Source: a virus (lineage: Duplodnaviria > Heunggongvirae > Uroviricota > Caudoviricetes). From it: 28,744 nt of DNA. Position numbers and translations under genes: made by a program. The DNA is taken from positions 1-28,744 of the IMG/VR virus record IMGVR_UViG_2923307698_000001; one strand, given 5' to 3'. Within the stretch, counting starts at the first letter, position 1. Every line of letters begins with the position of its first letter. Under the pieces are notes generated by a model. It made no database searches. It saw only the letters and a program-made list of their open reading frames with translations, and was not told the DNA's origin. This document shows, in pieces, positions 17,331-28,047 of the stretch.

Positions 17331-17993
17331 ATGCATCGTATAGACACGAAAACCGCGCAGAAGGATAAGTTCGGCGCGGGTAAGAACGGTTTTACCCGTG
17401 GTAACCCCCAGACCGGCACGCCTGCCACCGATCTGGATGATGACTACTTTGACATGTTGCAGGAGGAGCTTTGCAGCGTTGTGGAGGCGTCCGGTGCCAG
17501 CCTGGAGAAGGGGCGGCACGACCAGCTACTTACCGCGCTTCGCGCGCTGCTGTTAAGCCGCAAGAATCCGTTTGGCGATATCAAATCGGATGGCACGGTG
17601 AAAACGGCTCTCGAAAACCTTGGTTTGGGAGAAGCGGCAAAACGGGACGTGGGAACAGGGGAAAATCAGATACCGGATATGGTTTCATTTAGTGGTGTGA
17701 GGGATTTTTATGGAAAACAACTTTTGCCAGGAGGGTTGATACTCCAGTGGCTGACGATTCCATCAAGTGCAGCAGTCAAAGCTGTAACACTGGATAATGG
17801 TAATTATCAGCTGTCAGGCTATAAATGGCCCCAGTCATTTGGTGTCCTGTTTGCTGTGTTTGCCACAAAAGTTTCTGGCTCGACTAACGAAGCATACGCA
17901 ATCTCAGTTAATCGTCACTCTACCGATGTAATTGTCACCTGGAATGCCCGTAAGGCTGATGATGTCCATATTTTAGGAATTGGGAAATTATGA
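17331..17993 (+). CDS. Tail fibre protein: constant N-terminal part plus currently expressed variable C-terminus
   Basis: 220 aa. The constant region ends at ...[22 protein letters not shown], which reappears on the opposite strand at 18784..19191 ([22 protein letters not shown]). Confidence 0.65.
17620..17644 (+). repeat. Left inverted repeat / recombination site of the invertible segment
   Basis: ttggtttgggagaagcggcaaaacg is the exact reverse complement of 19127..19151. The hix/gix-like core AAACC-TT-GGTTT is at 17615..17626. Confidence 0.75.
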
Positions 17994-18409
17994 AAATGAA
18001 ATGGTCCCCATCTGTTCAGGGATTTTTCTCTGAAAACAACAGCGATATTCCCGATGATGCTTTCGATATTGAAGATGCTCTTTATTATGAACTTATGAAT
18101 GGTCAGAGTACGGGGAAAATTATTATCAATAGCCCGGATAACTACCCTGTACTTACTGAATATCCAGCGAAGACACATGAACAGGAAATAGCTGAAGCGG
18201 AGGGAATGAAAAATATACTTATTGAACAGGCCAACGATTATATGAACAGTAAACAATGGCCTGGTAAAGCGGCTATTGGCCGGCTGAAAGGTGAGGAACT
18301 GGCACAATATAATTTGTGGCTGGATTACCTGGACGCACTGGAACTGGTCGATACTTCCGGTGCGCCAGATATTGAATGGCCTACACCTCCGGTAACTCAG
18401 GCCAGCTAA
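17990..18409 (+). CDS. Tail fibre assembly protein (expressed orientation)
   Basis: 139 aa, coupled to the tail-fibre stop. Confidence 0.65.
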
Positions 18410-18417
18410 TCTCAGGA

Positions 18418-18441
18418 GCCGTCGAAGTGTCGACGGCTTTT
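18418..18441. terminator. Hairpin terminator between the convergent tail-fibre assembly genes
   Basis: gccgtcga agtg tcgacggc is a perfect 8-bp stem, followed by tttt. Confidence 0.5.
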
Positions 18442-18775
18442 ACTTCTTTTTGTAGTCCATCCAGGCAGATAGTTTTTCTTTATCTGTACTGCTGATATCA
18501 CCAAGCATTAATTCCACCCGCCTGTCAGCTGTGACATTATCGGCATGAGCAAGTAACTGCATTCGCTGATTTTCAGCACGTGCGACATAATCAATCGCCG
18601 GAGATTTCAGTACCGGTAAACCATTTTCATCTGACGTGATTAATTTCCCCCCTTCCTGCTGTCCGGCAATTAATTCATTGTATAAGTCTGTACTTATCTC
18701 AACAATGTCAGCAGGCATGTCGCTGTTTATACCATCAAAGAAAAAACCATTAGTCGATTTTGAGAAATAAATCAT
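18440..18775 (-). CDS. Alternative tail fibre assembly protein (silent orientation)
   Basis: Begins MIYFSKSTNGFFFDGINSD, a typical tail-fibre-assembly N-terminus. Lies inside the invertible segment on the opposite strand. Confidence 0.6.
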   Translation of the reverse strand: MIYFSKSTNGFFFDGINSDMPADIVEISTDLYNELIAGQQEGGKLITSDENGLPVLKSPAIDYVARAENQRMQLLAHADNVTADRRVELMLGDISSTDKEKLSAWMDYKKK

Positions 18776-18783
18776 AGATATAC

Positions 18784-19126
18784 CTATACACCGATTGCTA
18801 CCCAAAAACAGGACCTTTCATATTTGACAATTTCTCCCTGAGATATACCGCCAACAATTATATAGAACTGTGATTTGCTGATATCAGAACAGTTCGCTAT
18901 GCCCATTGCAGATATACCAGCCACCGACGTTGTATGTGGCACAGCCAACAGCGCAAGTGAACGATTTGGGAATGTTACCGGGTAAGTCACCGTATAGTTT
19001 GATGCTCCACTGACAATACCCCACTGAATAATCAGACCTGAAGGGAGTTTTTGAAAACCCGTTGATGAAAGTGAACTGGCAAACGCCGCCATATCCGGAA
19101 TTTGGTTTTGCTCGTTACCCACATTT
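18784..19126 (-). CDS. Alternative tail-fibre C-terminal cassette (promoterless, fused to the constant region after inversion)
   Basis: Translation continues in frame from the right inverted repeat ([20 protein letters not shown]...). It is similar to, but distinct from, the expressed C-terminus. Confidence 0.6.
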
Positions 19127-19151
19127 CGTTTTGCCGCTTCTCCCAAACCAA
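19127..19151 (-). repeat. Right inverted repeat / recombination site of the invertible segment
   Basis: Reverse complement is identical to 17620..17644. Outer half-site AAACC AA CGTTT at 19145..19156. Confidence 0.75.
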
Positions 19152-19218
19152 CGTTTATGAAAATGCAGAGATAACGGCTAACTGGCATCATCTCCGGTTT
19201 TTATTCAGGGGGATGATC

Positions 19219-19785
19219 ATGCTTATTGGCTATGTACGCGTGTCAACAAATGACCAGAACACCGATTTGCAACGTAATGCACTGAACTGCGCGGGATGTG
19301 AGCGGATTTTTGAGGATAAAATCAGTGGCACTAAGTCCGACAGACCGGGGCTGAAAAAGCTGCTCAGGACACTATCGGCAGGAGACACGCTGGTTGTCTG
19401 GAAGCTGGACAGGTTGGGGCGCAGTATGCGGCATCTTGTTACGCTGATAGAGGAGTTGCGCCAGCGTGGTGTGAATTTCCGAAGCCTGACTGACAGTATT
19501 GATACCAGTACCCCAATGGGCCGTTTCTTTTTTCATGTCATGGGTGCCCTGGCTGAAATGGAACGCGAACTGATAGTTGAACGTACCAGGGCAGGGCTGG
19601 CTGCAGCTCGTGCCAAAGGCAGAGTAGGTGGACGCCGTCCTAAGTTGACCACCGAACAGTGGGCACAGATTGGGCGTTTACTCGAGGCCGGAGAATCAAG
19701 ACAGCGTATTGCACTGATTTTTGATGTGGGTGTTTCCACAATTTATAGAAAATTTCCGGCAAATAAGAGTAATGAATCCCCCTGA
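19219..19785 (+). CDS. pin: Serine recombinase DNA invertase (Pin/Gin/Hin family)
   Basis: MLIGYVRVSTNDQNTDLQRNAL...DTLVVWKLDRLGRSM...GRFFFHVMGALAEMERELIVERT...RRPKLT...STIYRKFPA carries the catalytic Ser and C-terminal HTH seen in Hin/Gin/Pin invertases. RBS aggggga precedes ATG 19219. Confidence 0.85.
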   Translation: MLIGYVRVSTNDQNTDLQRNALNCAGCERIFEDKISGTKSDRPGLKKLLRTLSAGDTLVVWKLDRLGRSMRHLVTLIEELRQRGVNFRSLTDSIDTSTPMGRFFFHVMGALAEMERELIVERTRAGLAAARAKGRVGGRRPKLTTEQWAQIGRLLEAGESRQRIALIFDVGVSTIYRKFPANKSNESP

Positions 19786-19833
19786 ATCAGCATTATTTTG
19801 ATTATCCCTGCAAGTAGACAAATACCGTCATTT

Positions 19834-19851
19834 TGTGTGAATAACGGTACA
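19834..19851 (+). promoter_or_regulatory. TGT-N12-ACA dyad (Ogr/Delta-type late-promoter activator site) upstream of FI
   Basis: TGTgtgaataacggtACA lies ~75 bp upstream of the FI ATG (19928), which has RBS aggagg. Ogr-like activator is encoded at 26834..27052. Confidence 0.4.
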
Positions 19852-19927
19852 ACTGCGCTTAGCTGTTTGTCAGGCACAATCACTTCAACATAGGGCGAAG
19901 CCTAATCCAATCAGGAGGTTCGCCACT

Positions 19928-21100
19928 ATGGCTCAGGATTACCACCACGGGGTGCGCGTTGTTGAAGTCAACGAAGGCACCCGATCCATTACCACGGTGA
20001 GCACCGCCATCGTGGGCATGGTCTGCACGGGCGATGATGCCGATGCAAAAATGTTTCCTCTTAACAAACCTGTGCTGATCACTGATGTGCTGACTGCCAG
20101 CGGTAAAGCGGGTGAGTCCGGCACGCTGGCCCGTTCGCTGGATGCCATCGCTGACCAGGCAAAACCCGTGACCGTTGTTGTGCGTGTGCCGCAGGGTGAA
20201 ACGGAAGAAGAAACCACGACCAATATCATCGGCGCAGTGACTGCTGAAGGTAAAAAAACAGGCATGAAAGCTCTGTTATCTGCCCAGTCACAGCTCGGCG
20301 TTAAACCGCGCATTCTCGGCGTGCCAGGTCACGATAACAAAGCCGTTGCGACTGAGTTGCTGAGCGTGGCGCAAAGCCTGCGTGGGTTTGCTTACCTGTC
20401 AGCGTATGGCTGCAAGACGGTACAGGAGGCGATCACTTACCGTGAAAACTTCAGCCAGCGCGAAGGAATGCTGATCTGGCCCGACTTTACTGGCTGGGAC
20501 ACGGTGCTGAATGCCGAAGCAACGGCATATGCCACCGCCCGTGCACTTGGTCTGCGTGCCAAAATTGATGAGCAGACCGGGTGGCACAAAAGCCTGTCCA
20601 ACGTGGGCGTGAACGGTGTCACCGGAATTTCTGCAGATGTGTTCTGGGATCTGCAGGACCCGGCAACCGATGCAGGTCTGCTGAACCAGAACGACGTCAC
20701 CACGCTTGTGCGTAAAGACGGTTTCCGCTTCTGGGGTTCCCGCTGTCTGAGCGATGATCCGCTTTTTGCCTTCGAAAACTACACCCGCACGGCGCAGGTG
20801 CTGACGGACACAATGGCAGAAGCACACATGTGGGCGGTGGATAAACCGCTTAACCCGTCGCTGGCCCGCGACATTATCGAAGGTATCCGCGCCAAAATAC
20901 GCAGCCTGGTCAGTCAGGGCTATCTCATTGGTGGTGATTGCTGGCTGGATGAGTCGGTGAACGACAAAGACACGCTGAAAGCCGGAAAACTCACCATCGA
21001 CTATGACTACACGCCAGTGCCGCCACTTGAAAATCTGATGCTGCGCCAGCGCATCACCGATCAGTACCTGGTGAATTTCGCCAGCCAGGTCAGCGCGTAA
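19928..21100 (+). CDS. FI: P2-type tail sheath protein FI
   Basis: 390 aa. N-terminus [40 protein letters not shown] and C-terminus ...[27 protein letters not shown] match P2 FI as I recall it. Confidence 0.85.
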
Positions 21101-21109
21101 GGGGACAAC

Positions 21110-21625
21110 ATGGCTTTACCACGCAAATTAAAACATCTGAACCTGTTTAACGACGGGAACAACTGGCAGGGGATCGTTGAGTCGCTGACGCTGCCGAAAT
21201 TCACCCGCAAATATGAGAAGTATCGCGGCGGCGGAATGCCGGGTGCAGTGGATGTGGATCTGGGGCTTGATGACAGTGCGCTGGACACAGAATTTTCCAT
21301 TGGTGGTACTGAACTGCTGCTGTTTAAGCAGATGGGCAAAGCCACGGTAGATGGCATTCAGCTGCGCTTTACCGGCTCTATCCAGCGTGACGATACCGGG
21401 GAAGTGCAGGCCGTGGAGCTTGTGGTGCGTGGACGTCACAAAGAAGTGGATTCCGGCGAGTGGAAGACGGGCGAAAGCAACACCACCAAAGTGACCAGTA
21501 CCAACAGCTACGCGAAGCTGACCATCAATGGTGAGGTGCTCTATGAAGTGGACCTTATCAACATGGTGGAAATTGTGGACGGTGTGGACCTGATGGAAGC
21601 GCACCGCAACGCCCTCGGCCTCTGA
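21110..21625 (+). CDS. FII: P2-type tail tube protein FII
   Basis: 171 aa, MALPRKLKHLNLFNDGNNWQG..., directly after FI. Confidence 0.8.
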   Translation: MALPRKLKHLNLFNDGNNWQGIVESLTLPKFTRKYEKYRGGGMPGAVDVDLGLDDSALDTEFSIGGTELLLFKQMGKATVDGIQLRFTGSIQRDDTGEVQAVELVVRGRHKEVDSGEWKTGESNTTKVTSTNSYAKLTINGEVLYEVDLINMVEIVDGVDLMEAHRNALGL

Positions 21626-21636
21626 TGTATCTGAAC

Positions 21637-21654
21637 GGCGCGGGATACCGCGCC
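21637..21654 (+). other. GC stem-loop between FII and E
   Basis: ggcgcgg gata ccgcgcc is a perfect 7-bp stem with no T-tract. Likely an mRNA processing or attenuation element. Confidence 0.3.
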
Positions 21655-21679
21655 AGAACCCAATTTACAGGACAGCAAA

Positions 21680-21982
21680 ATGAGCGATAAGCAGACTGAA
21701 AAGACTATTCAACTGGATACCCCCATCAAGCGCGGTAAAACAGAAATCACCGAAATTGTGCTGCGTAAACCGCAGTCCGGTGCGCTGCGCGGTACACGCC
21801 TGCAGGCCATTATGGATATGGATGTGAACGCGATGATGACCGTGATCCCCCGTATCTCCAGTCCGGCACTGACTGCACAGGAAATTGCAGAGATGGACCC
21901 GGCAGATCTCACTGCCATGTCGGTTGAGGTTGTCACTTTTTTGTTGAAGAAGTCGGTGCTTGCCGGTTTACCGACAGCCTGA
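21680..21982 (+). CDS. E: P2-type tail assembly chaperone E
   Basis: 100 aa between tube and tape measure. Contains the slippery site T TTT TTG. Confidence 0.7.
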   Translation: MSDKQTEKTIQLDTPIKRGKTEITEIVLRKPQSGALRGTRLQAIMDMDVNAMMTVIPRISSPALTAQEIAEMDPADLTAMSVEVVTFLLKKSVLAGLPTA

Positions 21983-22116
21983 CGGTTGACGATCTGGTGG
22001 CTGATATCGCCACCATCTTTCACTGGCCGCCATCCGTTACTGACGTTATGCCGCTGACCGAAGTGCTGGAATGGCGGTATAAAGCGATTCAGAGAAGCGG
22101 GGCCAACGATGAGTGA
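21680..22116 (+). CDS. E+E' frameshift product (-1 shift at 21937..21943)
   Basis: Zero-frame codons ACT TTT TTG give the heptamer T TTT TTG at 21937..21943. The -1 frame reads VEEVGACRFTDSL...RYKAIQRSGANDE to TGA at 22114..22116, overlapping the T start at 22109. Confidence 0.6.
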
Positions 22117-25100
22117 TAACAACCTGCGGCTGCAGGTCATTCTTAATGCGGTTGACAAACTCACCCGCCCATTCCGTGTTGCACAGGCCAGTTCGAAAGA
22201 GCTGGCTGGCGCAATTCAGAATACCCGAAACAGCCTCAAAGAACTGAATAAGCAGGCTGGCAGAATTGATGAATTTCGCAAGACGCGCTCGCAACTAGCC
22301 ATAACAGCCAACAACCTGAACGCAGCCCGCGAAGAGGCGGCAAAACTCGCCACACAATTTGCTGCCACTAACAGGCCAACCGCCGCGCAGGCAAAGTTAT
22401 TCAGTCAGGCCAAAACACGAGTACAGGAACTTCAGCAGACCTATAACGGCTTGTTGGGGGCGGTCCAGAGACAACGTCAGGCACTTAAAGAATCAGGGAT
22501 TGATACCAGACAACTCAGTAGTGCCCAGCGAGAACTTAAGAAAAATGCTGAAGAAACAAGGCAGGCAATGGAGGGCCAGCAAAAAGCACTTAAACGTCTG
22601 GGTGAACAACAGGCACGGATGAACGCTGCCAGAGAACAATACTCAAGACGGCTTGAAGTGCGCGATCGCATCGCAGGAGCCGGAGCCACTACCACGGCTG
22701 CAGGGCTGGCAATGGGTGCGCCAGTGATGGCAGCAGTAAAAAGCTATACCAGCATGGAAGATGCCATGAAAGGTGTGGCAAAGCAGGTCAATGGTCTGCG
22801 TGATGATAATGGCAACCGCACTGCGCGTTTTTACGAAATGCAGGATGCCATCAAGGCTGCCAGCGAACAGTTGCCGATGGAAAACGGTGCTGTGGACTTT
22901 GCCGCACTGGTTGAAGGTGGTGCGCGCATGAACGTCGCAAATCCTGACGACAGCTGGGAAGACCAGAAACGTGACCTGCTGGCCTTCGCCAGCACGGCAG
23001 CAAAGGCGGCAACAGCCTTTGAGCTGCCAGCGGATGAACTGTCAGAAAGTCTGGGGAAAATCGCCCAGCTCTACAAAATCCCTACCCGCAATATTGAACA
23101 GCTCGGTGATGCGCTGAACTATCTGGATGATAACGCCATGTCGAAAGGGTCAGACATCATTGATGTCATGCAACGCCTGGGCGGTGTGGCAGATCGTCTG
23201 GATTATCGTAAAGCGGCGGCGCTGGGTTCCACCTTCCTGACACTGGGCGCTGCGCCGGAGGTTGCTGCCAGTGCAGCAAACGCGATGGTGCGTGAATTGT
23301 CCATTGCCACCATGCAAAGTAAGAGTTTCTTTGAAGGGATGAATCTGCTGAAACTCAATCCTGAAGTGATTGAAAAGCAGATGACGAAGGATGCGATGGG
23401 AACTATCCAGCGTGTGCTGGAGAAGGTGAACGCACTGCCGCAGGACAAGCGTCTGTCTGCCATGACCATGTTGTTTGGTAAAGAGTTTGGTGATGATGCA
23501 GCGAAACTGGCAAACAACCTTCCGGAACTGCAGCGCCAGCTAAAACTGACAGCGGGCAATGATGCGCTCGGTTCCATGCAGAAAGAATCCGACATCAACA
23601 AAGACTCACTTTCCGCTCAGTGGTTGCTGGTCAAAACCGGAGCGCAGAACACCTTCAGCAGCCTGGGCGAAACGCTGCGCCAGCCGCTGATGGATATTCT
23701 GTACACGGTAAAAAGCATCACGGGGGCGTTGCGCCGCTGGGTGGAAGCTAACCCGGAACTGACAGGCACACTGATGAAAGTAGCGGCTGTTGTGGCTGCG
23801 GTTACCGTAGGCCTCGGCACCTTAGCGGTGGCGCTGGCTGCAGTGCTGGGGCCGCTGGCAGTCATCCGTCTGGGATTCTCTGTGCTGGGTATCAAAACGT
23901 TACCTTCCGTTACGGCAGCAGTAACACGAACCAGCAGCGCGTTGTCCTGGTTAGCTGGCGCTCCACTGGCACTGCTGCGACGCGGGCTTGCTTCATCGGG
24001 CAACGCAGCGGGTTTACTTACTGCGCCGTTGTCGTCTTTGCGCCGCACCGCATCACTGACGGGGAATGTCCTGAAAACTGTAGCAGGTGTGCCGGTTGCA
24101 CTGTTGCGGTCTGGATTATCCGGTTTACGTGCGGTTGCTGTGATGTTTATGAATCCACTGGCAGCACTACGCGGTGGACTGGCTGCCGCAGGCGCGGTGC
24201 TGCGTGTGCTGGCATCCGGTCCGCTGGCGATGCTGCGCGTTGCCCTGTATGCCGTATCTGGTCTGTTAGGTGCTCTGCTCAGTCCGATAGGTCTTGTGGT
24301 TACTGCACTGGCGGGCGTGGCGCTGGTTGTCTGGAAATACTGGCAACCCATCACCGCATTTCTCGGTGGCGTGGTGGAAGGATTCAAAGCGGCGGCAGGT
24401 CCCATCAGTGCTGCATTCGAACCGCTTAAGCCCGTGTTCCAGTGGATTGGCGACAAAGTACAGGCGTTGTGGGGCTGGTTTACTGATCTGCTGACGCCTG
24501 TTAAGTCGACCTCTGCCGAACTGCAGAGCGCAGCGGCAATGGGGCGACGATTCGGGGAGGCACTGGCGGAAGGGCTGAATATGGTCATGCATCCGTTGGA
24601 CTCCCTGAAATCCGGCGTTTCCTGGTTGCTGGAGAAACTCGGTATTGTCAGTAAAGAGGCTGCAAAGGCGAAACTGCCGGAAAGCGTGACGCGTCAGCAA
24701 CCTGCGACGGTGAATGCAGACGGTAAAGTGATGATGCCATCGGGTGGTTTTCCGTCATGGGGATATGGCTTTGCGGGGATGTATGACAGCGGCGGCTATA
24801 TCCCGCGCGGGCAGTTCGGCATTGTCGGTGAAAACGGGCCTGAAATTGTCAACGGTCCGGCAAACGTGACCAGTCGGAGAAATACAGCTGCACTGGCTGC
24901 CGTTGTTGCCGGAATGATGGGCGTTGCTGCCGCGCCTGCAGAGCTTCCGCCGTTACATCCTTTGGCACTTCCCGCGAAAGGCGGCGAAGCGATGGTGAGT
25001 CGTGCAGCCACTGTGCCGCCCGCTCAACGGATTGAGGCACCGACGCAGATCATCATCCAGACGCAGCCAGGACAAAGTGCGCAGGATATTGCGCGGGAGG

Positions 25101-25186
25101 TGGCACGCCAGCTTGATGAACGTGAACGCAGGCTGAAGGCAAAAGCCAGGAGTAACTACAGCGATCAGGGGGGATACGACGCATGA
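22109..25186 (+). CDS. T: P2-type tail tape measure protein T
   Basis: 1025 aa. Long helical N-terminal half, Ala/Leu/Gly-rich hydrophobic repeats in the middle. Lies between E/E' and U. Confidence 0.8.
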   Translation: MSDNNLRLQVILNAVDKLTRPFRVAQASSKELAGAIQNTRNSLKELNKQAGRIDEFRKTRSQLAITANNLNAAREEAAKLATQFAATNRPTAAQAKLFSQAKTRVQELQQTYNGLLGAVQRQRQALKESGIDTRQLSSAQRELKKNAEETRQAMEGQQKALKRLGEQQARMNAAREQYSRRLEVRDRIAGAGATTTAAGLAMGAPVMAAVKSYTSMEDAMKGVAKQVNGLRDDNGNRTARFYEMQDAIKAASEQLPMENGAVDFAALVEGGARMNVANPDDSWEDQKRDLLAFASTAAKAATAFELPADELSESLGKIAQLYKIPTRNIEQLGDALNYLDDNAMSKGSDIIDVMQRLGGVADRLDYRKAAALGSTFLTLGAAPEVAASAANAMVRELSIATMQSKSFFEGMNLLKLNPEVIEKQMTKDAMGTIQRVLEKVNALPQDKRLSAMTMLFGKEFGDDAAKLANNLPELQRQLKLTAGNDALGSMQKESDINKDSLSAQWLLVKTGAQNTFSSLGETLRQPLMDILYTVKSITGALRRWVEANPELTGTLMKVAAVVAAVTVGLGTLAVALAAVLGPLAVIRLGFSVLGIKTLPSVTAAVTRTSSALSWLAGAPLALLRRGLASSGNAAGLLTAPLSSLRRTASLTGNVLKTVAGVPVALLRSGLSGLRAVAVMFMNPLAALRGGLAAAGAVLRVLASGPLAMLRVALYAVSGLLGALLSPIGLVVTALAGVALVVWKYWQPITAFLGGVVEGFKAAAGPISAAFEPLKPVFQWIGDKVQALWGWFTDLLTPVKSTSAELQSAAAMGRRFGEALAEGLNMVMHPLDSLKSGVSWLLEKLGIVSKEAAKAKLPESVTRQQPATVNADGKVMMPSGGFPSWGYGFAGMYDSGGYIPRGQFGIVGENGPEIVNGPANVTSRRNTAALAAVVAGMMGVAAAPAELPPLHPLALPAKGGEAMVSRAATVPPAQRIEAPTQIIIQTQPGQSAQDIAREVARQLDERERRLKAKARSNYSDQGGYDA

Positions 25187-25668
25187 TGATGGTGCTGGGA
25201 TTGTACGTGTTTATGCTGCGCACTGTGCCGTATCAGGAACTGCAGTATCAACGCAGCTGGCGACATGCGGCAAACAGCCGGGTCAACCGACGTCCGTCCA
25301 CGCAGTTTCTGGGACCGGACAACGACATGCTGACGCTTTCTGGTGTTCTTATGCCGGAGATAACAGGCGGCAGGCTGTCGTTGCTGGTACTGGAGCAGAT
25401 GGCAGAGCAGGGGAAAGCATGGCCCCTGATTGAAGGCAGCGGCACGATTTACGGCATGTATGTGATTGAGGGACTGAATCAGACTAAAACGGAGTTTTTC
25501 CGCGACGGTATGCCGCGCCGGATTGAGTTCACCCTGTCGCTCAAACGGGTGGATGAATCCCTGTCCGATATGTTCGGTGATCTCAGTGCGCAACTGAATA
25601 ATCTGCAGGACACGGCAACGTCTGCCTTAAGCGATATCAGTAAAACGGTGGGAGGGCTGCTGTCGTGA
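25183..25668 (+). CDS. U: P2-type tail protein U
   Basis: 161 aa, coupled start (ATGATGATG), between T and D. Confidence 0.7.
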   Translation: MMMVLGLYVFMLRTVPYQELQYQRSWRHAANSRVNRRPSTQFLGPDNDMLTLSGVLMPEITGGRLSLLVLEQMAEQGKAWPLIEGSGTIYGMYVIEGLNQTKTEFFRDGMPRRIEFTLSLKRVDESLSDMFGDLSAQLNNLQDTATSALSDISKTVGGLLS

Positions 25669-26765
25669 ATTTCAGCTCTGAACTGCTTAACAAAGGCAAC
25701 AAAACTCCCGCATTCAGCATCAGTATTGAGGGCAGGGATATCACCACTGTGCTGGATAACCGCCTGATGAGTTTGACGCTGACGGATAATCGGGGCTTTG
25801 AAGCAGACCAGCTTGATCTGGAGCTGGACGACGCCGACGGAAAAATCGTGCTGCCGCGCCGTGGTGCGGTTATTACGCTGGCGCTGGGCTGGAAGGGGCA
25901 GCCGCTTTTCCCGAAAGGGGCATTCACGGTGGACGAGATTGAACACACTGGCGCACCGGACCGCCTGACTATCCGGGCGCGAAGTGCTGATTTTCGTGAA
26001 ACGCTGAATACCCGCCGTGAAAAGTCGTGGCACAAGACCACCGTTGGGGAAGTGGTGAAGGAAATAGCTGCGCGGCACAAACTGAAGATGGCATTGGGTA
26101 AAGACCTGTCAGATAAACCCGTGGAACATATAGACCAGACCAATGAGAGTGACGGCAGTTTTCTGATGCGACTGGCGCGCCAGTACGGTGCTATTGCGTC
26201 GGTGAAAAATGGCAATCTGTTATTCATCCGGCAGGGACAGGGCAAAAGCGCCAGCGGTAAACCACTGCCGGTGATCACTATCACGCGTAAGGACGGCGAC
26301 AGTCACCGCTTTACCCTGGCAGATCGCGGAGCCTATACGGGCGTCATTGCCAGCTGGTTGCATACCCGCGAACCCGCGAAGAAAGAAAGCACCACGGTGA
26401 AGCGTAAGCGCAGAACTAAGAAGCAGAAGAAAGAGCCGGAAGCGAAGCAGGGCGATTACCTGGTGGGGACGGATGAAAACGTGCTGGTACTTAATCGCAC
26501 TTATGCCAACCGGAGCAACGCCGAACGAGCGGCGAAAATGCAGTGGGAACGCCTGCAACGCGGTGTTGCGTCATTCTCGCTACAACTGGCGGAAGGTCGG
26601 GCAGATCTCTACACGGAAATGCCTGTGAAGGTCAGTGGCTTTAAACAGCCAATAGATGATGCGGAATGGACCATTACGACTCTGACACATACCGTCAGCC
26701 CGGATAACGGTTTTACGACCAGTATTGAACTTGAAGTGAAAATTGGTGATCTTGAAATGGAGTAA
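25665..26765 (+). CDS. D: P2-type tail protein D (late control D family)
   Basis: 366 aa. GTG start overlaps the U stop (GTGA), RBS ggtgggaggg. Lys-rich internal segment. Last gene before ogr. Confidence 0.75.
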   Translation: MNFSSELLNKGNKTPAFSISIEGRDITTVLDNRLMSLTLTDNRGFEADQLDLELDDADGKIVLPRRGAVITLALGWKGQPLFPKGAFTVDEIEHTGAPDRLTIRARSADFRETLNTRREKSWHKTTVGEVVKEIAARHKLKMALGKDLSDKPVEHIDQTNESDGSFLMRLARQYGAIASVKNGNLLFIRQGQGKSASGKPLPVITITRKDGDSHRFTLADRGAYTGVIASWLHTREPAKKESTTVKRKRRTKKQKKEPEAKQGDYLVGTDENVLVLNRTYANRSNAERAAKMQWERLQRGVASFSLQLAEGRADLYTEMPVKVSGFKQPIDDAEWTITTLTHTVSPDNGFTTSIELEVKIGDLEME

Positions 26766-26833
26766 ATGGTTCTCAATATTGATATTTTGTGTATCATTGC
26801 AATGATTCTGATAGCAAAGGTAGGGATCTGGAT

Positions 26834-27052
26834 ATGATGAATTGTCCAAAGTGTGGTCATGCGGCGCACACAAGGAGCAGTTTTCAAGTAACAGAAAGCA
26901 CCAAAGAGCGTTACTGCCAGTGCCAAAATATTAACTGCGGGAGCACTTTTGTTACCCATGAAACAGTGGTCCGGTTTATTGTGACACCTGCAGTGATTGC
27001 CACAGCCCCTCCACATCCATTGCCAGGTGGTCAGGGCCATATGAATTTTTAA
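26834..27052 (+). CDS. ogr: Ogr/Delta-family zinc-finger late transcription activator
   Basis: MMNCPKCGHAAHTRSS...KERYCQCQNINCGSTF...: C-X2-C-X22-C-X4-C spacing and ~72 aa length match P2 Ogr. Position at the prophage right end next to att, as in P2. Confidence 0.8.
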   Translation: MMNCPKCGHAAHTRSSFQVTESTKERYCQCQNINCGSTFVTHETVVRFIVTPAVIATAPPHPLPGGQGHMNF

Positions 27053-27056
27053 GAAA

Positions 27057-27083
27057 GAGAACCTGCTACGGCAGGTTTTTATT
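27057..27083. terminator. Bidirectional hairpin terminator between ogr and the convergent orphan gene
   Basis: Stem aacctgc / gcaggtt with loop tacg, flanked by an A-rich run upstream and tttttatt downstream. Confidence 0.5.
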
Positions 27084-27561
27084 CATCTGGGATCTCACCC
27101 GTTTCAAGAAAATGTATAAAGCCAGGCTCATCTATGATGATAGTGCCTTTCATCCTGGCTGCCGATACTTTTGATGGGCCTGCATTGTAACCGCAACAGA
27201 GCATCTGAAGGTTTTGGGTTACAGATGTTCTTACCGTTAATCCTTGTTCATTCGCCTTATCAACCAACCTTTCTTTATCTGCTTTCTTAAATCCGGTGAA
27301 ACACACATCGAATGTATTTTTTTTCGGACCTGACTGCTTAGTGAGATGTGAGTAGTTTTCGGGGAGGAATGACGCGCATTCCTGAATGGCTTGTTCTTGT
27401 GAATCGTATTGTTTAAGAATGCGGTCTTTTCGGAAGGTTTTTATTCGATCGGTGTTCTTACAAATGCCCTGTATGTGATTTTCGCTATAACTGATGCTCT
27501 GTATTGAGTGAACACCGATACGACCATTTGCATTGATGTAAACAAAGTGAAGTTCTTCCAT
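27079..27561 (-). CDS. Orphan cargo gene: WYL-like N-terminal motif plus C-terminal BRCT-like domain
   Basis: 160 aa. ATG at 27561..27559 with RBS aagagg 7 nt upstream. N-terminus LHFVYINANGRIGVHSIQ...RIKTFRKDRIL resembles the WYL-domain R-x-F-R-x-D-R-I signature. C-terminus FDVCFTGFKKADKERLVDKANEQGLTVRTSVTQNLQMLCCGYNAGPSKVSAARMKGTIIIDEPGFIHFL resembles a LigA-type BRCT. Region is AT-rich relative to the P2-like genes. Confidence 0.55.
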   Translation of the reverse strand: MEELHFVYINANGRIGVHSIQSISYSENHIQGICKNTDRIKTFRKDRILKQYDSQEQAIQECASFLPENYSHLTKQSGPKKNTFDVCFTGFKKADKERLVDKANEQGLTVRTSVTQNLQMLCCGYNAGPSKVSAARMKGTIIIDEPGFIHFLETGEIPDE

Positions 27562-27587
27562 GTCAAACCTCTTTGCATGATTTCAAG

Positions 27588-27626
27588 ATGGCGACAGGCA
27601 AGATGGACGCAAAAGTCTGTCGCCAT
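27588..27626. promoter_or_regulatory. 10-bp perfect inverted repeat upstream of the orphan gene (possible operator or hairpin)
   Basis: atggcgacag (27588..27597) and ctgtcgccat (27617..27626) with a 19-bp spacer. Direct repeat caagatgg at 27584 and 27599. Confidence 0.3.
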
Positions 27627-27652
27627 TTTGCCGCCACTACCTAAGAAAAAGG

Positions 27653-27680
27653 GGCTACGCTTTCACGTAACCCCTTGATT
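27653..27680 (-). terminator. ssrA intrinsic terminator
   Basis: On the minus strand: GGGGUUACG ugaaag CGUAGCCCC followed by UUUUUCUU, immediately 3' of the tmRNA CCA end. Confidence 0.6.
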
Positions 27681-27707
27681 TATTTGGTGGAGCTGGCGGG
27701 AGTTGAA
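27655..27707. repeat. Proximal att-site direct repeat (ssrA 3' end plus terminator), partner of 1..52
   Basis: Identical to window 1..32 over 27655..27686, with a degenerate match beyond. Confidence 0.7.
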
Positions 27708-28047
27708 CCCGCGTCCGAAATTCCTACATCCTCGGTACTACATGCTTAGTCAGTCTTTACATTCGCTTGCCAGCTGCGGACGGACACGCCACTAACAAAC
27801 TAGCCTGATTAAGTTTTAACGCTTCAACCCCAGGCAGGGCTTCCACGCGATCTCTTTTGGGTTTGACCTCTCTTGATCCCCGTCCTAAGAGCGGAGGCTA
27901 GGGAGAGAGGGCTCTAAGCAGGTTATTAAGCTGCTAAAGCGTAGTTTTCGTCGTTTGCGACTATTTTTTGCGGCTTTTTACGAGGCCAACCGCCCCTCGG
28001 CATGCACCTTGGGTTTCGCAAATCCCGTCGAATCCAGAATCAGCCCC
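27685..28047 (-). ncRNA. ssrA: tmRNA (transfer-messenger RNA, SsrA)
   Basis: Reverse complement reads GGGGCTGATTCTGGATTCGACGGG...CCCGCCAGCTCCACCA, 363 nt. Tag reading frame GCA AAC GAC GAA AAC TAC GCT TTA GCA GCT TAA (ANDENYALAA) at 27926..27958. Matches the enterobacterial tmRNA as I recall it. Confidence 0.97.

Follow-up and report, generated by a model that had tools for sequence, protein, structure and literature searches.

WYL folds occur in the regulators PafBC, DriD, CapW and BrxR, which carry a wHTH and a WCX dimerisation domain besides; the 160-aa prophage protein described here has the WYL fold and lacks both of these domains. By sequence profile, the C-terminal domain of the protein matched best the BRCT domain of RFC1 (p140) and the C-terminal BRCT of LigA. 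These have the same fold and belong to proteins with clamp-loader or ligase catalytic modules, whereas the WYL-BRCT protein is a small stand-alone protein for which DNA-end binding is putative. With respect to genomic logic, the closest precedents are lambda rexA/rexB, lactococcal sie2009 and P2 old/tin/fun, as all of them are co-oriented genes beside an immunity repressor. The likeness is positional, without relationship in sequence or fold, although Sie proteins are membrane-anchored, as are many WYL-BRCT relatives. Non-essential genes expressed in lysogens beside repressors, such as lambda rexAB, P2 old/tin/fun and lactococcal sie2009, are typically exclusion genes. The genes rexA/rexB lie after cI, and sie2009 lies between the repressor and int.

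The family itself has so far appeared as catalogue entries only, namely phrog_2561, UniRef 'BRCT domain-containing protein' and a WYL+BRCT fusion in the list of WYL architectures by Makarova et al. 2014 (PMC4012209). The two-domain architecture had been called unrecognised in the initial annotation, which holds in that no named or characterised system corresponds to it and does not hold in that the fusion had been listed. No function, ligand or genomic association of the family is described in the searchable literature, and no functional study of any member was found in the literature searched.

The window, the whole stretch of 28,744 nt that was analysed, carries the gene on the minus strand as an ATG-to-stop ORF at 27079-27561, with the stop codon at 27079-27081. 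The ORF is convergent with an ogr/Delta-type late activator gene on the plus strand (26834-27052), assigned from the annotation of identical loci in phage Cartapus and E. coli FORC_042, and a terminator scan detected a bidirectional hairpin terminator common to both genes at 27060-27077. Upstream of the ORF and on the same strand, ARAGORN located ssrA (tmRNA) at 27685-28047, and the distance from the ORF start to the ssrA 3' end was 123 nt. Sequence comparison identified the att core as the final 45 nt of ssrA (27685-27729, minus strand), which is present in the phage attP too. The regenerated ssrA 3' end is followed directly by a phage-supplied intrinsic terminator with a 12-bp stem and a T run (27649-27676, minus strand), falling within the stretch identical to Cartapus. 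Identity to this free phage extends for exactly 168 nt before the ATG and no further, and in prophage-free E. coli genomes the match begins only at about 27681-27686 and runs onward from there. Between the terminator and the gene lies a direct repeat, GTGGCGGCA-AAA-TGGCGACAG (27617-27637, minus strand), which is kept upstream of the gene in relatives, even in those using a different tRNA att site. The repeat is similar to the Int arm consensus annotated in phage 186, YAYCGCCAYTY, and probably represents Int arm-type sites of attP with a putative role in binding.

The prophage in the window has neither int nor cI and is a defective composite/hybrid remnant, in which the WYL-BRCT gene is intact with ogr and ssrA as its sole neighbours. 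The initial annotation had described a P2-type prophage with an AT-rich gene convergent with ogr and extra to the P2 plan. The AT-richness of the gene, its convergence with ogr and its absence from P2 agreed with this description, while the state of the prophage as a hybrid remnant did not. The GC content of the gene was 41.0%, compared with 53.2% in the remaining prophage DNA. The gene is additional to the arrangements of P2 and 186, as the order is ogr, terminator and attP in P2 and B, tB and attP in 186, with zero genes between. P2 and 186 were also absent from the 28 phage-collection records found by tblastn with the WYL-BRCT protein.

The ORF is a genuine gene on which purifying selection acts strongly, far beyond a chance ORF. 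The comparison with homologues of 71-74% amino acid identity gave a pN of just 0.16-0.20 and a saturated pS of 0.72-0.88, and the protein matched phrog_2561 (PHROG) over its full length with E=2.5e-77. The identical 160-aa protein was found in at least 1000 public contigs, and 165 of 5426 complete E. coli genomes carried the gene in the present arrangement. As for expression signals, a Shine-Dalgarno sequence AAGAGG (27568-27573, minus strand) was read 6 nt before the ATG. A scan of the interval from the ssrA terminator to the ATG found no sigma-70 promoter, manual inspection revealed no convincing conserved -35/-10 elements upstream of the genes of relatives, and no P2 late-promoter dyad (TGT-N12-ACA) for the gene was seen by eye.

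Structure prediction (AF2) gave a model with a mean pLDDT of 91.6. The N-terminal residues 1-52 (27406-27561, minus strand) were predicted to form a WYL-type, Sm-like five-stranded beta-barrel, beginning at residue 3 and also recovered by fold search, whose nearest WYL structural matches were DNA-damage or ssDNA sensors. The motif RIKTFRKDRIL is located at residues 39-49 and provides a basic R-x-F-R-x-D-R-I-type motif, K41-T42-F43-R44-K45-D46-R47-I48, at the putative ligand site. Within the domain, Y8 and R47 were invariant, and F6, T42, F43 and D46 were conserved in at least 90% of the sequences. The eponymous W-Y-L triad is absent; the aligned residues are H29-I30-Q31, with a family consensus of Y-[IL]-Q, and PafBC/PafC have WYF / SYL. 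The window protein by itself gave zero Pfam WYL (PF13280) matches, and the PADLOC WYL model matched it with E=0.027. At the family level, 24 of 41 N-domains matched PF13280 (best 9.2e-10), the WYL gathering score was passed by the homologues P0152, P0156, P0196, P0202 and P0210, and the family N-domain profile matched the WYL domains of PafBC/PafC with 7e-6 and 1.2e-5. The domain is followed by a two-helix linker, residues 53-80 (27322-27405, minus strand), delimited by the secondary structure and pLDDT of the predicted structure. The pLDDT dropped around residues 70-80, and the linker was the most variable stretch in the family alignment.

The C-terminal residues 81-160 (27082-27321, minus strand) adopted the beta-alpha-beta-beta-alpha-beta-alpha fold of BRCT domains in the structure prediction and fold search. 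With Pfam BRCT (PF00533), the window protein scored 19.9 bits, where the gathering score is 21.3, and many homologues scored above this threshold. The family profile matched the BRCT domain of RFC1 with 1.9e-5 and that of LigA with 6e-5, with the FTG and AGPxK motifs aligned. Among the pocket residues, T89, G90 and K131 were invariant and K96 was conserved in at least 90% of the sequences; T89-G90, K96 and K131 align with FTG and GPKK of RFC1. Kobayashi et al. are said to have found that the T-G, K/R and K positions of the RFC1 BRCT bind the 5' phosphate of DNA. The domain is a BRCT of RFC1/LigA type in which the T-G...K...K residues of the putative phosphate pocket are kept, and such a T/S-G...K pocket equally fits phosphopeptide binding. 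A search of a viral fold library returned mostly LigA BRCTs, plus a handful of small phage proteins named 'BRCT' or 'putative ligase'.

The WYL-like N-terminus and the LigA-type BRCT proposed from the sequence were thereby borne out by predicted structure, fold search and family-level profiles. The absence of an HTH and of an enzymatic domain was also upheld, as the searches of Pfam, NCBIfam and PADLOC found neither. The protein does not belong to the transcription factors of the wHTH-WYL-WCX family, because it has no wHTH or WCX (no HTH hit in Pfam or NCBIfam), shows H-I-Q in place of the W-Y-L triad and has a BRCT domain as the output module at its C-terminus. Its overall charge was neutral: the pI was 6.95 over the full length and 5.8 in the BRCT half, which would be unusual for a protein that binds DNA avidly.

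Enzyme names are attached to the family in databases: 'DNA ligase' in RefSeq phage records and PHROG, and exonuclease in the Cartapus record. The matches to the respective models were confined to the BRCT region. TIGR00575 (LigA) scored 20.9 bits against a cut-off of 444.45, with only model positions 547-650 of 652 matching, and NF004719 (DEDDh exonuclease) scored 26.4 bits against a cut-off of 389, with only positions 229-307 of 331, the C-terminal BRCT part. The adenylation (KxDG), OB, Zn-finger and HhH domains are absent from the 160-aa protein. Judged by domain content, the 'DNA ligase' and 'exonuclease' labels are over-annotations, and the 'DNA ligase' label of PHROG is wrong. PADLOC-DB v2 returned only partial BRCT-level matches (PDC-S48 and SspE) and the weak WYL match, with no full-length match. 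The candidate PDC-S48 has C-terminal 70 residues that match the BRCT region with E=1.7e-7, but the match was confined to positions 334-406 of the 411-residue model and had no WYL correspondence, and the WYL-BRCT protein is not a member.

The gene had been regarded as an orphan inserted as cargo near att, and the family comparison contradicted both points. Searching with the family profile gave 2715 cluster representatives at E<=1e-3; at the stricter cut-off of E<=1e-30 there were 204. The family, phrog_2561, is large, with thousands of relatives. In P2-like prophages of many Proteobacteria, the gene shares its strand with the CI repressor gene and comes right after it. It is a part of the lysogeny module whose synteny is conserved in many P2-like prophages, where it is normally the next gene after cI, rather than a sporadic att insertion. 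In Mannheimia PHL101 and Vibrio PV94 it is the gene directly after cI, and Burkholderia phages have the repressor, one ORF and then the WYL-BRCT gene. Among 29 genome loci, the upstream same-strand neighbour carried Phage_CI_repr at 8 loci, HTH_3 at another count of 8 and Peptidase_S24 at 6, often with gaps of 4-21 nt; a second, viral set of 35 upstream neighbours gave Peptidase_S24 18, HTH_3 17 and Phage_CI_repr 9. The gene is probably co-transcribed with cI across many prophages. Its position immediately after cI in the lysogenic operon means that the family is therefore made in lysogens.

The E. coli/Elveevirus lineage differs in that int and attP lie between cI and the WYL-BRCT gene; in Cartapus the circular gene order is int, a 401-aa 'RES' gene, attP and then the WYL-BRCT gene, and in Yersinia phage MLG42 the gene is present while the interval from int to attP is free of cargo. 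Integration therefore shifts the gene to the far end of the prophage, behind ssrA and the terminator. Cartapus-type phages retain a DinI/Tum-like gene after gpA, which weakened the idea that the WYL-BRCT protein substitutes for the Tum SOS antirepressor.

Relatives of the protein varied in their N-terminal extensions and downstream neighbours. Many relatives carry N-terminal membrane anchors: among the family representatives of at least 200 aa, 43 of 62 had TM-like segments, and TM variants likewise come after cI. Some relatives contain a fused domain of about 230 aa (GYAAGW...WTQGH; phrog_36782/6785), for which zero matches were found in Pfam, NCBIfam and PDB, so that it offered no clue to function. 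The slot downstream of the gene is variable in relatives and harbors AbiTii, PDC-S39/S20/S02, a type IV REase and PifA/QatA-like proteins, all known or candidate defence genes. The expected accumulation of defence-type cargo beside the gene was thus seen in the AbiTii, PDC-type and REase neighbours of relatives. At many loci gpD lies directly downstream, and no constant partner gene was found among the loci surveyed.

We tentatively favor the reading that the WYL-BRCT protein is expressed in lysogens, has no enzymatic activity and senses or binds ssDNA and DNA ends with a 5' phosphate, acting in superinfection exclusion or defence. The WYL barrel belongs to the class sensing ssDNA or other nucleic-acid ligands, as in PafBC, DriD and CapW, and the flexible helical linker joins it to a single RFC1/LigA-class BRCT, whose pocket is of the class recognising 5'-phosphorylated DNA ends and nicks. 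The protein may thus recognise ss/dsDNA junctions or 5'-phosphate ends on foreign DNA, either incoming (e.g. cohesive ends) or replicating, and its stoichiometric binding would keep the DNA from being circularised, ligated or replicated, or would flag it. A protein by which foreign DNA is blocked or flagged in this manner would be a superinfection-exclusion or defence factor. In relatives with a membrane anchor, the module would be displayed at the inner membrane, the site of DNA entry; SNIPE (PMC13190303) shows that a DNA binder anchored in the membrane can act on DNA after its injection. The positional argument for an exclusion role proceeds by precedent from the repressor-linked genes of other phages, and the lack of an effector domain in the protein and of a constant partner gene was counted against the exclusion or defence reading, as were the neutral charge, the equal fit of the pocket to phosphopeptides and the PADLOC similarity limited to the BRCT of PDC-S48. 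The retention of the intact gene in the decayed remnant was counted in its favor, together with the domain matches and conserved pocket residues, the position after cI, the membrane anchors of relatives and the defence genes in the downstream slot. Expression in the integrated E. coli arrangement is putative, because no sigma-70 promoter was found, and it would need read-through of the terminator or an unrecognised promoter.

The main alternative, which we consider somewhat unlikely, is that the protein modulates the lysis-lysogeny switch, with the WYL domain sensing ssDNA from damage or replication stress, as in the RecA-independent responses of PafBC, DriD and CapW, and the BRCT domain signalling to CI or to the integration/excision machinery, so that induction or the establishment of lysogeny would be tuned. 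Lambda RexA, co-transcribed with cI, influences the lysis-lysogeny switch and offers a precedent. The tight linkage to cI, with its probable co-transcription, and the DNA-damage or ssDNA sensors nearest to the WYL fold are consistent with such a role, as is a 2026 preprint reporting that cI/BRCT modules replace quorum-sensing modules in Roseobacter prophages and suggesting damage sensing (PMC13345283). However, the linked repressors are of two unrelated types, 186-type CI_repr/CI_C and LexA-like S24, and the S24 repressors already sense RecA* themselves. The DinI/Tum-like gene kept by Cartapus-type phages also argues against a switch modulator, frequent membrane anchoring would be odd for one, and the gene is separated from cI in the E. 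coli lineage and persists in the window without cI.

The variable downstream neighbours, several of which match defence families, could instead point to a modular system of abortive infection or defence in which the protein is the sensor or adaptor subunit, a reading that we regard as distinctly unlikely. The effector would then be the variable neighbour (AbiTii, KAP NTPase, Mrr or PDC-type; in Cartapus the RES-like gene across attP, as in its circular order) or a host protein recruited by the BRCT domain, and WYL domains are known to regulate defence systems (PMC4012209). The neighbours are not constant, however: gpD follows the gene directly at many loci, MLG42 has the gene without the cargo between int and attP, and the window offers solely ogr and ssrA.

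An action on behalf of the phage against its host is very unlikely. A WYL domain without an output HTH resembles a ligand-binding decoy, which would sequester the ssDNA or nucleotides that serve as ligands for WYL-controlled defence regulators such as BrxR and CapW, and a BRCT nearest to LigA and RFC1 might compete with the host LigA or clamp-loader BRCT at nicks, aiding phage replication or establishment. In the circular phage, the gene comes after the transcription unit of cI and int, and this unit is active during establishment (Cartapus; 186 map). Against these possibilities stand the position in the lysogenic operon rather than an early lytic operon and the existence of membrane-anchored variants; CapW and BrxR are also not known to be ubiquitous in the hosts of these prophages, which speaks against a decoy. 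The identity given by the databases, that of a DNA ligase, ligase subunit or exonuclease, retains hardly any probability and was ruled out, since the phrog_2561 name, certain record annotations and the existence of split phage ligases with a BRCT-bearing B subunit (9hu3_B; phage Eps7 subunit B) are outweighed by matches in the BRCT region alone, a WYL barrel at the N-terminus and the lack of an annotated ligase A subunit in the late/tail, lysogeny, early and replication regions examined in Cartapus.

A broader form of the exclusion reading, which we consider quite unlikely as a whole, is that the WYL-BRCT proteins constitute a widespread, hitherto unrecognised and effector-less class of prophage immunity or sensing proteins wired to CI, which would read ssDNA together with a 5'-phosphate end and neutralise incoming genomes by capping the ends stoichiometrically. 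The targets would be phage cohesive ends, nicks or gaps, and the anchored variants would act at the membrane. For the E. coli lineage that integrates at ssrA, placement across attP would tie expression to the integrated versus circular state, possibly through ssrA read-through. The protein is small, soluble and confidently modelled, and its key residues T89, K96, K131, R44 and R47 are obvious, so that the hypotheses are directly testable. The propagated mis-annotation as 'DNA ligase' or 'exonuclease' is corrected, and the synteny rule of cI, WYL-BRCT gene and variable defence slot could guide the discovery of defence genes in P2-like prophages. If the favored reading is true, a gene of very frequent occurrence would stand for a new function tied to lysogeny, with two sensing domains and zero enzyme, bearing on how prophages exclude rivals or read the status of DNA.

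The ORF at 27079-27561 (minus strand) comprises 160 codons starting with ATG, and 6 nt 5' of this codon a ribosome-binding site, AAGAGG, was read from the sequence (27568-27573, minus strand). A hairpin terminator detected by a terminator scan at 27060-27077 is common to this WYL-BRCT gene and the convergent ogr, and the opposite side is occupied by the tmRNA gene ssrA (27685-28047, minus strand), after which smpB comes. The ORF is a real gene under purifying selection, with pS of 0.72-0.88 (saturated) and pN of 0.16-0.20 against homologues at 71-74% amino-acid identity; the sole computable dN/dS was ~0.07. Its GC content was 41.0%, lower than the 53.2% of the window's prophage DNA, in agreement with the AT-richness pointed out in the initial annotation.

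Domain searches with the single window protein were suggestive only, giving E=9e-4 and 19.9 bits for Pfam BRCT, the gathering score of which (21.3) is slightly higher, and E=0.027 for the PADLOC WYL model at residues 26-61. AlphaFold2, supplied with a 34-sequence family alignment, returned a confident two-domain model (mean pLDDT 91.6). In profile comparison, the family matched BRCT domains from RFC1 at E=1.9e-5 and from LigA at 6e-5, with FTG opposite FTG and AGPxK opposite AGPKK, and the C-terminal domain is a BRCT domain. Across the alignment T89, G90 and K131 were invariant and K96 was kept in at least 90% of the sequences; the equivalent positions of the RFC p140 BRCT (Kobayashi et al.) reportedly make up the pocket with which BRCTs of the DNA-binding class hold a 5' phosphate. 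Since tandem BRCTs bind phosphoserine with the same S/T-G...K geometry, the pocket residues do not settle whether the ligand is DNA or phosphoserine. A separate model of the first 75 residues had a pLDDT of 92.5, a profile of 41 family N-domains matched the PafBC/PafC WYL domain (7e-6 and 1.2e-5), and 24 of the 41 individually matched Pfam WYL. The N-terminal domain is thus predicted to be a WYL barrel, in which H-I-Q replaces the W-Y-L triad in the window protein and the motif RIKTFRKDRIL lies at residues 39-49, as had been quoted. These results bore out both domain calls of the initial annotation, a WYL-like N-terminus and a LigA-type BRCT C-terminus, and its view that HTH and catalytic domains are absent also held; the WCX domain is absent as well. 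The protein shares the WYL barrel with WYL-type sensors, but is small, lacks an HTH and has a BRCT domain attached.

At least 1000 contigs carried the identical protein, variously named 'hypothetical protein', 'BRCT domain-containing protein' or 'NAD-dependent DNA ligase'. It is a full-length member of PHROG phrog_2561, labelled 'DNA ligase' (E=2.5e-77). Scores for the NCBIfam LigA and DEDDh-exonuclease models were far under the cut-offs, and only the C-terminal BRCT parts of these models aligned. The 'DNA ligase' and 'exonuclease' names were refuted, as they had been transferred by BRCT similarity to a protein without a catalytic domain.

The gene is not an orphan as had been proposed: when 1.84 billion cluster representatives were searched, the family profile matched 2715 proteins at E<=1e-3, of which 204 reached E<=1e-30, and most matches spanned the entire two-domain module. 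Of the top representatives, 62 were 200 aa or longer, and 43 of these contained hydrophobic TM-like segments, mostly N-terminal; one to three such N-terminal segments precede the module in many relatives (loci L120, L125 and L141-L153; proteins P0142, P0196, P0210 and others). The BRCT domain or the entire module is duplicated in some relatives. We also observed a recurrent domain of ~230 residues attached at either end of the module, resulting in proteins of ~390-400 aa (phrog_36782/6785; proteins P0122, P0124, P0130, P0162, P0175, P0186 and P0192; loci L154, L160-L166 and L171). This domain contains the motifs GYAAGWRFAV, ALDIK and WTQGH, and had no match among Pfam, NCBIfam or PDB sequences. 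Both domains, the catalogued but mislabelled family and a listing of the fusion are already known. The WYL+BRCT combination was named once within an architecture list by Makarova et al. 2014 (PMC4012209), and a 2026 preprint described cI/BRCT regulatory modules in some Roseobacter prophages with a guess at DNA-damage sensing (PMC13345283). No functional study of WYL-BRCT proteins was found in the literature searched, which also gave no named system for an architecture that the initial annotation had not recognised as one. The searchable literature describes neither this small WYL-BRCT protein without an HTH nor how systematically it is linked to cI, its membrane-anchored forms or its function.

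In the circular map of Escherichia phage Cartapus (Peduoviridae, Elveevirus), which shares 99.9-100% identity with the last 10 kb of prophage DNA in the window, cI and int precede a 401-aa 'RES' gene, attP and the WYL-BRCT gene, after which the convergent ogr and D come. The RES gene, CARTA_33 (Cartapus record L001, 2508-3713; outside the window), is annotated 'RES protein, NAD+ binding', lies between int and attP, in the circular phage directly upstream of the WYL-BRCT gene, and may be defence cargo. Yersinia phage MLG42 showed the same order without the RES gene. On the strand of the repressor, the annotated ribosome-binding site of the homologue in Mannheimia PHL101 is inside the 3' end of cI, the homologue in Vibrio PV94 is immediately 3' of the repressor, and one 750-bp ORF separates the two in Burkholderia P2-like phages. 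Among 29 upstream same-strand neighbours scored in 48 species-level genome loci, Phage_CI_repr (8/29), HTH_3 (8) and Peptidase_S24 (6) were detected, at least 14 being repressor-type proteins, with intergenic gaps of often 4-21 nt. An independent sample of viral contigs retrieved with membrane-anchored relatives gave Peptidase_S24 in 18/35 upstream neighbours, HTH_3 in 17/35 and Phage_CI_repr in 9/35; in P2-like prophages of ~33 kb, these anchored variants likewise come directly 3' of a gene for a CI/S24 repressor.

The downstream neighbours were variable and included integrase and gpD, as well as known or candidate defence-type genes (AbiTii, KAP NTPase/PifA/QatA-like, Mrr/type IV REase, PDC-S39, PDC-S20 and PDC-S02; L087-L134). 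These genes mark the slot 3' of the WYL-BRCT gene as a cargo hotspot of P2-like lysogeny modules. With a repressor upstream and variable genes downstream, the WYL-BRCT gene is the constant element of an arrangement that ends the lysogenic transcription unit, and it points towards the late operon with D and ogr. The gene is absent from P2 and 186, in which P2 ogr and 186 B directly precede the terminator and attP, so the comparison with P2 made previously was correct. The description as inserted cargo understated the conservation of a gene that recurs after repressors in two independent samples. The ogr/WYL-BRCT/ssrA arrangement was detected in 165 of 5426 complete E. coli genomes, and IMG/VR contained 193 related loci.

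The window itself had been labelled a P2-type prophage, and proved to be a defective composite with junctions near 2460 and 17609 (window 1-27729). Host-island remnants, an IS3 transposase (~1227-2404) and a truncated portal pseudogene are followed by SfII/SfI-like genes for an HK97-type head and a Mu-like tail (2477 to ~17608), of which 2477-6000 matches head genes of Shigella phage SfII-type phages, and by a Cartapus-like P2 tail module (17609-27729), the Cartapus identity starting only at ~17609 within the tail-fibre/invertase region. E. coli FORC_042 contains this entire arrangement at 100% identity, annotated as IS3 transposase, truncated portal pseudogene, SfII-like head and tail genes, invertase region, P2-type sheath, tube, tape measure, U, D, ogr, WYL-BRCT gene and ssrA. 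This annotation includes no integrase, repressor (cI) or replication genes in the remnant, where the WYL-BRCT gene is intact with no cI nearby. An invertible tail-fibre region at ~18400-19785 encodes a Cin/Gin-type recombinase (ORF 19102-19785) along with tail-fibre assembly and gp53-like fragments in opposite orientations. Just upstream is the SfII-like/Cartapus-like junction, a location which suggests that it arose by prophage recombination within shared tail-fibre sequence.

Identity to free Cartapus DNA extended over exactly 168 nt upstream of the WYL-BRCT ATG, and the match to prophage-free E. coli genomes started only at ~27681-27686. These limits defined the att core as the last 45 nt of ssrA (27685-27729), also on attP, and indicated that a strong terminator with a 12-bp stem 3' of the regenerated ssrA (27649-27676; terminator scan) and a direct repeat GTGGCGGCAAAATGGCGACAG (TGGCGGCA-AAA-TGGCGACA; 27617-27637) were supplied by the phage. 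As attP carries these 45 nt and the terminator, the 3' end of the host tmRNA gene and its terminator (27649-27729) are phage-derived in the integrated state. The repeat is kept 5' of the gene both in relatives integrated at ssrA and in those using other tRNA-type att sites, and it resembles the annotated 186 Int arm-site consensus; we infer that it represents putative Int arm sites of attP. One copy pairs with 27590-27597 as an 8-bp inverted repeat, which is not conserved in relatives. No sigma-70-type promoter was detected between the ssrA terminator and the ATG, so expression in the integrated state would come from an unrecognised promoter or from read-through of the terminator that follows ssrA, a very strongly transcribed gene. 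When the phage is circular, transcription of the cI-int unit could cross attP into the gene, the route annotated for the 186 lysogenic operon.

The WYL-BRCT protein joins a WYL domain of the ligand/nucleic-acid sensor type to a phosphate-pocket BRCT and has no enzymatic part, its gene is linked to CI repressors, and its relatives are often membrane-anchored. We tentatively favour, at somewhat less than even chance, a factor made in lysogens that would recognise ssDNA and/or 5'-phosphate ends or junctions of foreign DNA and act in superinfection exclusion or defence. The position beside the repressor is the classical place of exclusion genes, such as lambda rexAB and sie2009, with P2 old/tin/fun as precedents of lysogenic conversion, and the adjacent slot gathers defence genes. 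As there are only two ends on an incoming genome, stoichiometric binding would suffice and no enzyme would be needed. Membrane-anchored relatives would act where DNA enters, and anchoring with action at the entry site has been shown for the unrelated protein SNIPE (PMC13190303). The near-neutral pI (6.95 for the whole protein, 5.8 for the BRCT half) counts against the favoured reading. The main rival, in which the protein would sense ssDNA or damage and modulate the lysis-lysogeny switch, is rather unlikely, as the repressors next to the gene fall into two unrelated types, many being self-cleaving S24 proteins, a DinI/Tum-like gene is kept in Cartapus, and many relatives carry membrane anchors. 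Less well supported are a sensor subunit serving the variable neighbouring effectors, which we consider improbable, and an anti-defence or host-takeover role, more improbable still.

These findings do not contradict existing understanding, and the function proposed for the WYL-BRCT protein is conjectural. For phage biologists, the linkage to cI together with the WYL-BRCT architecture is worth testing, and the tests are easy.
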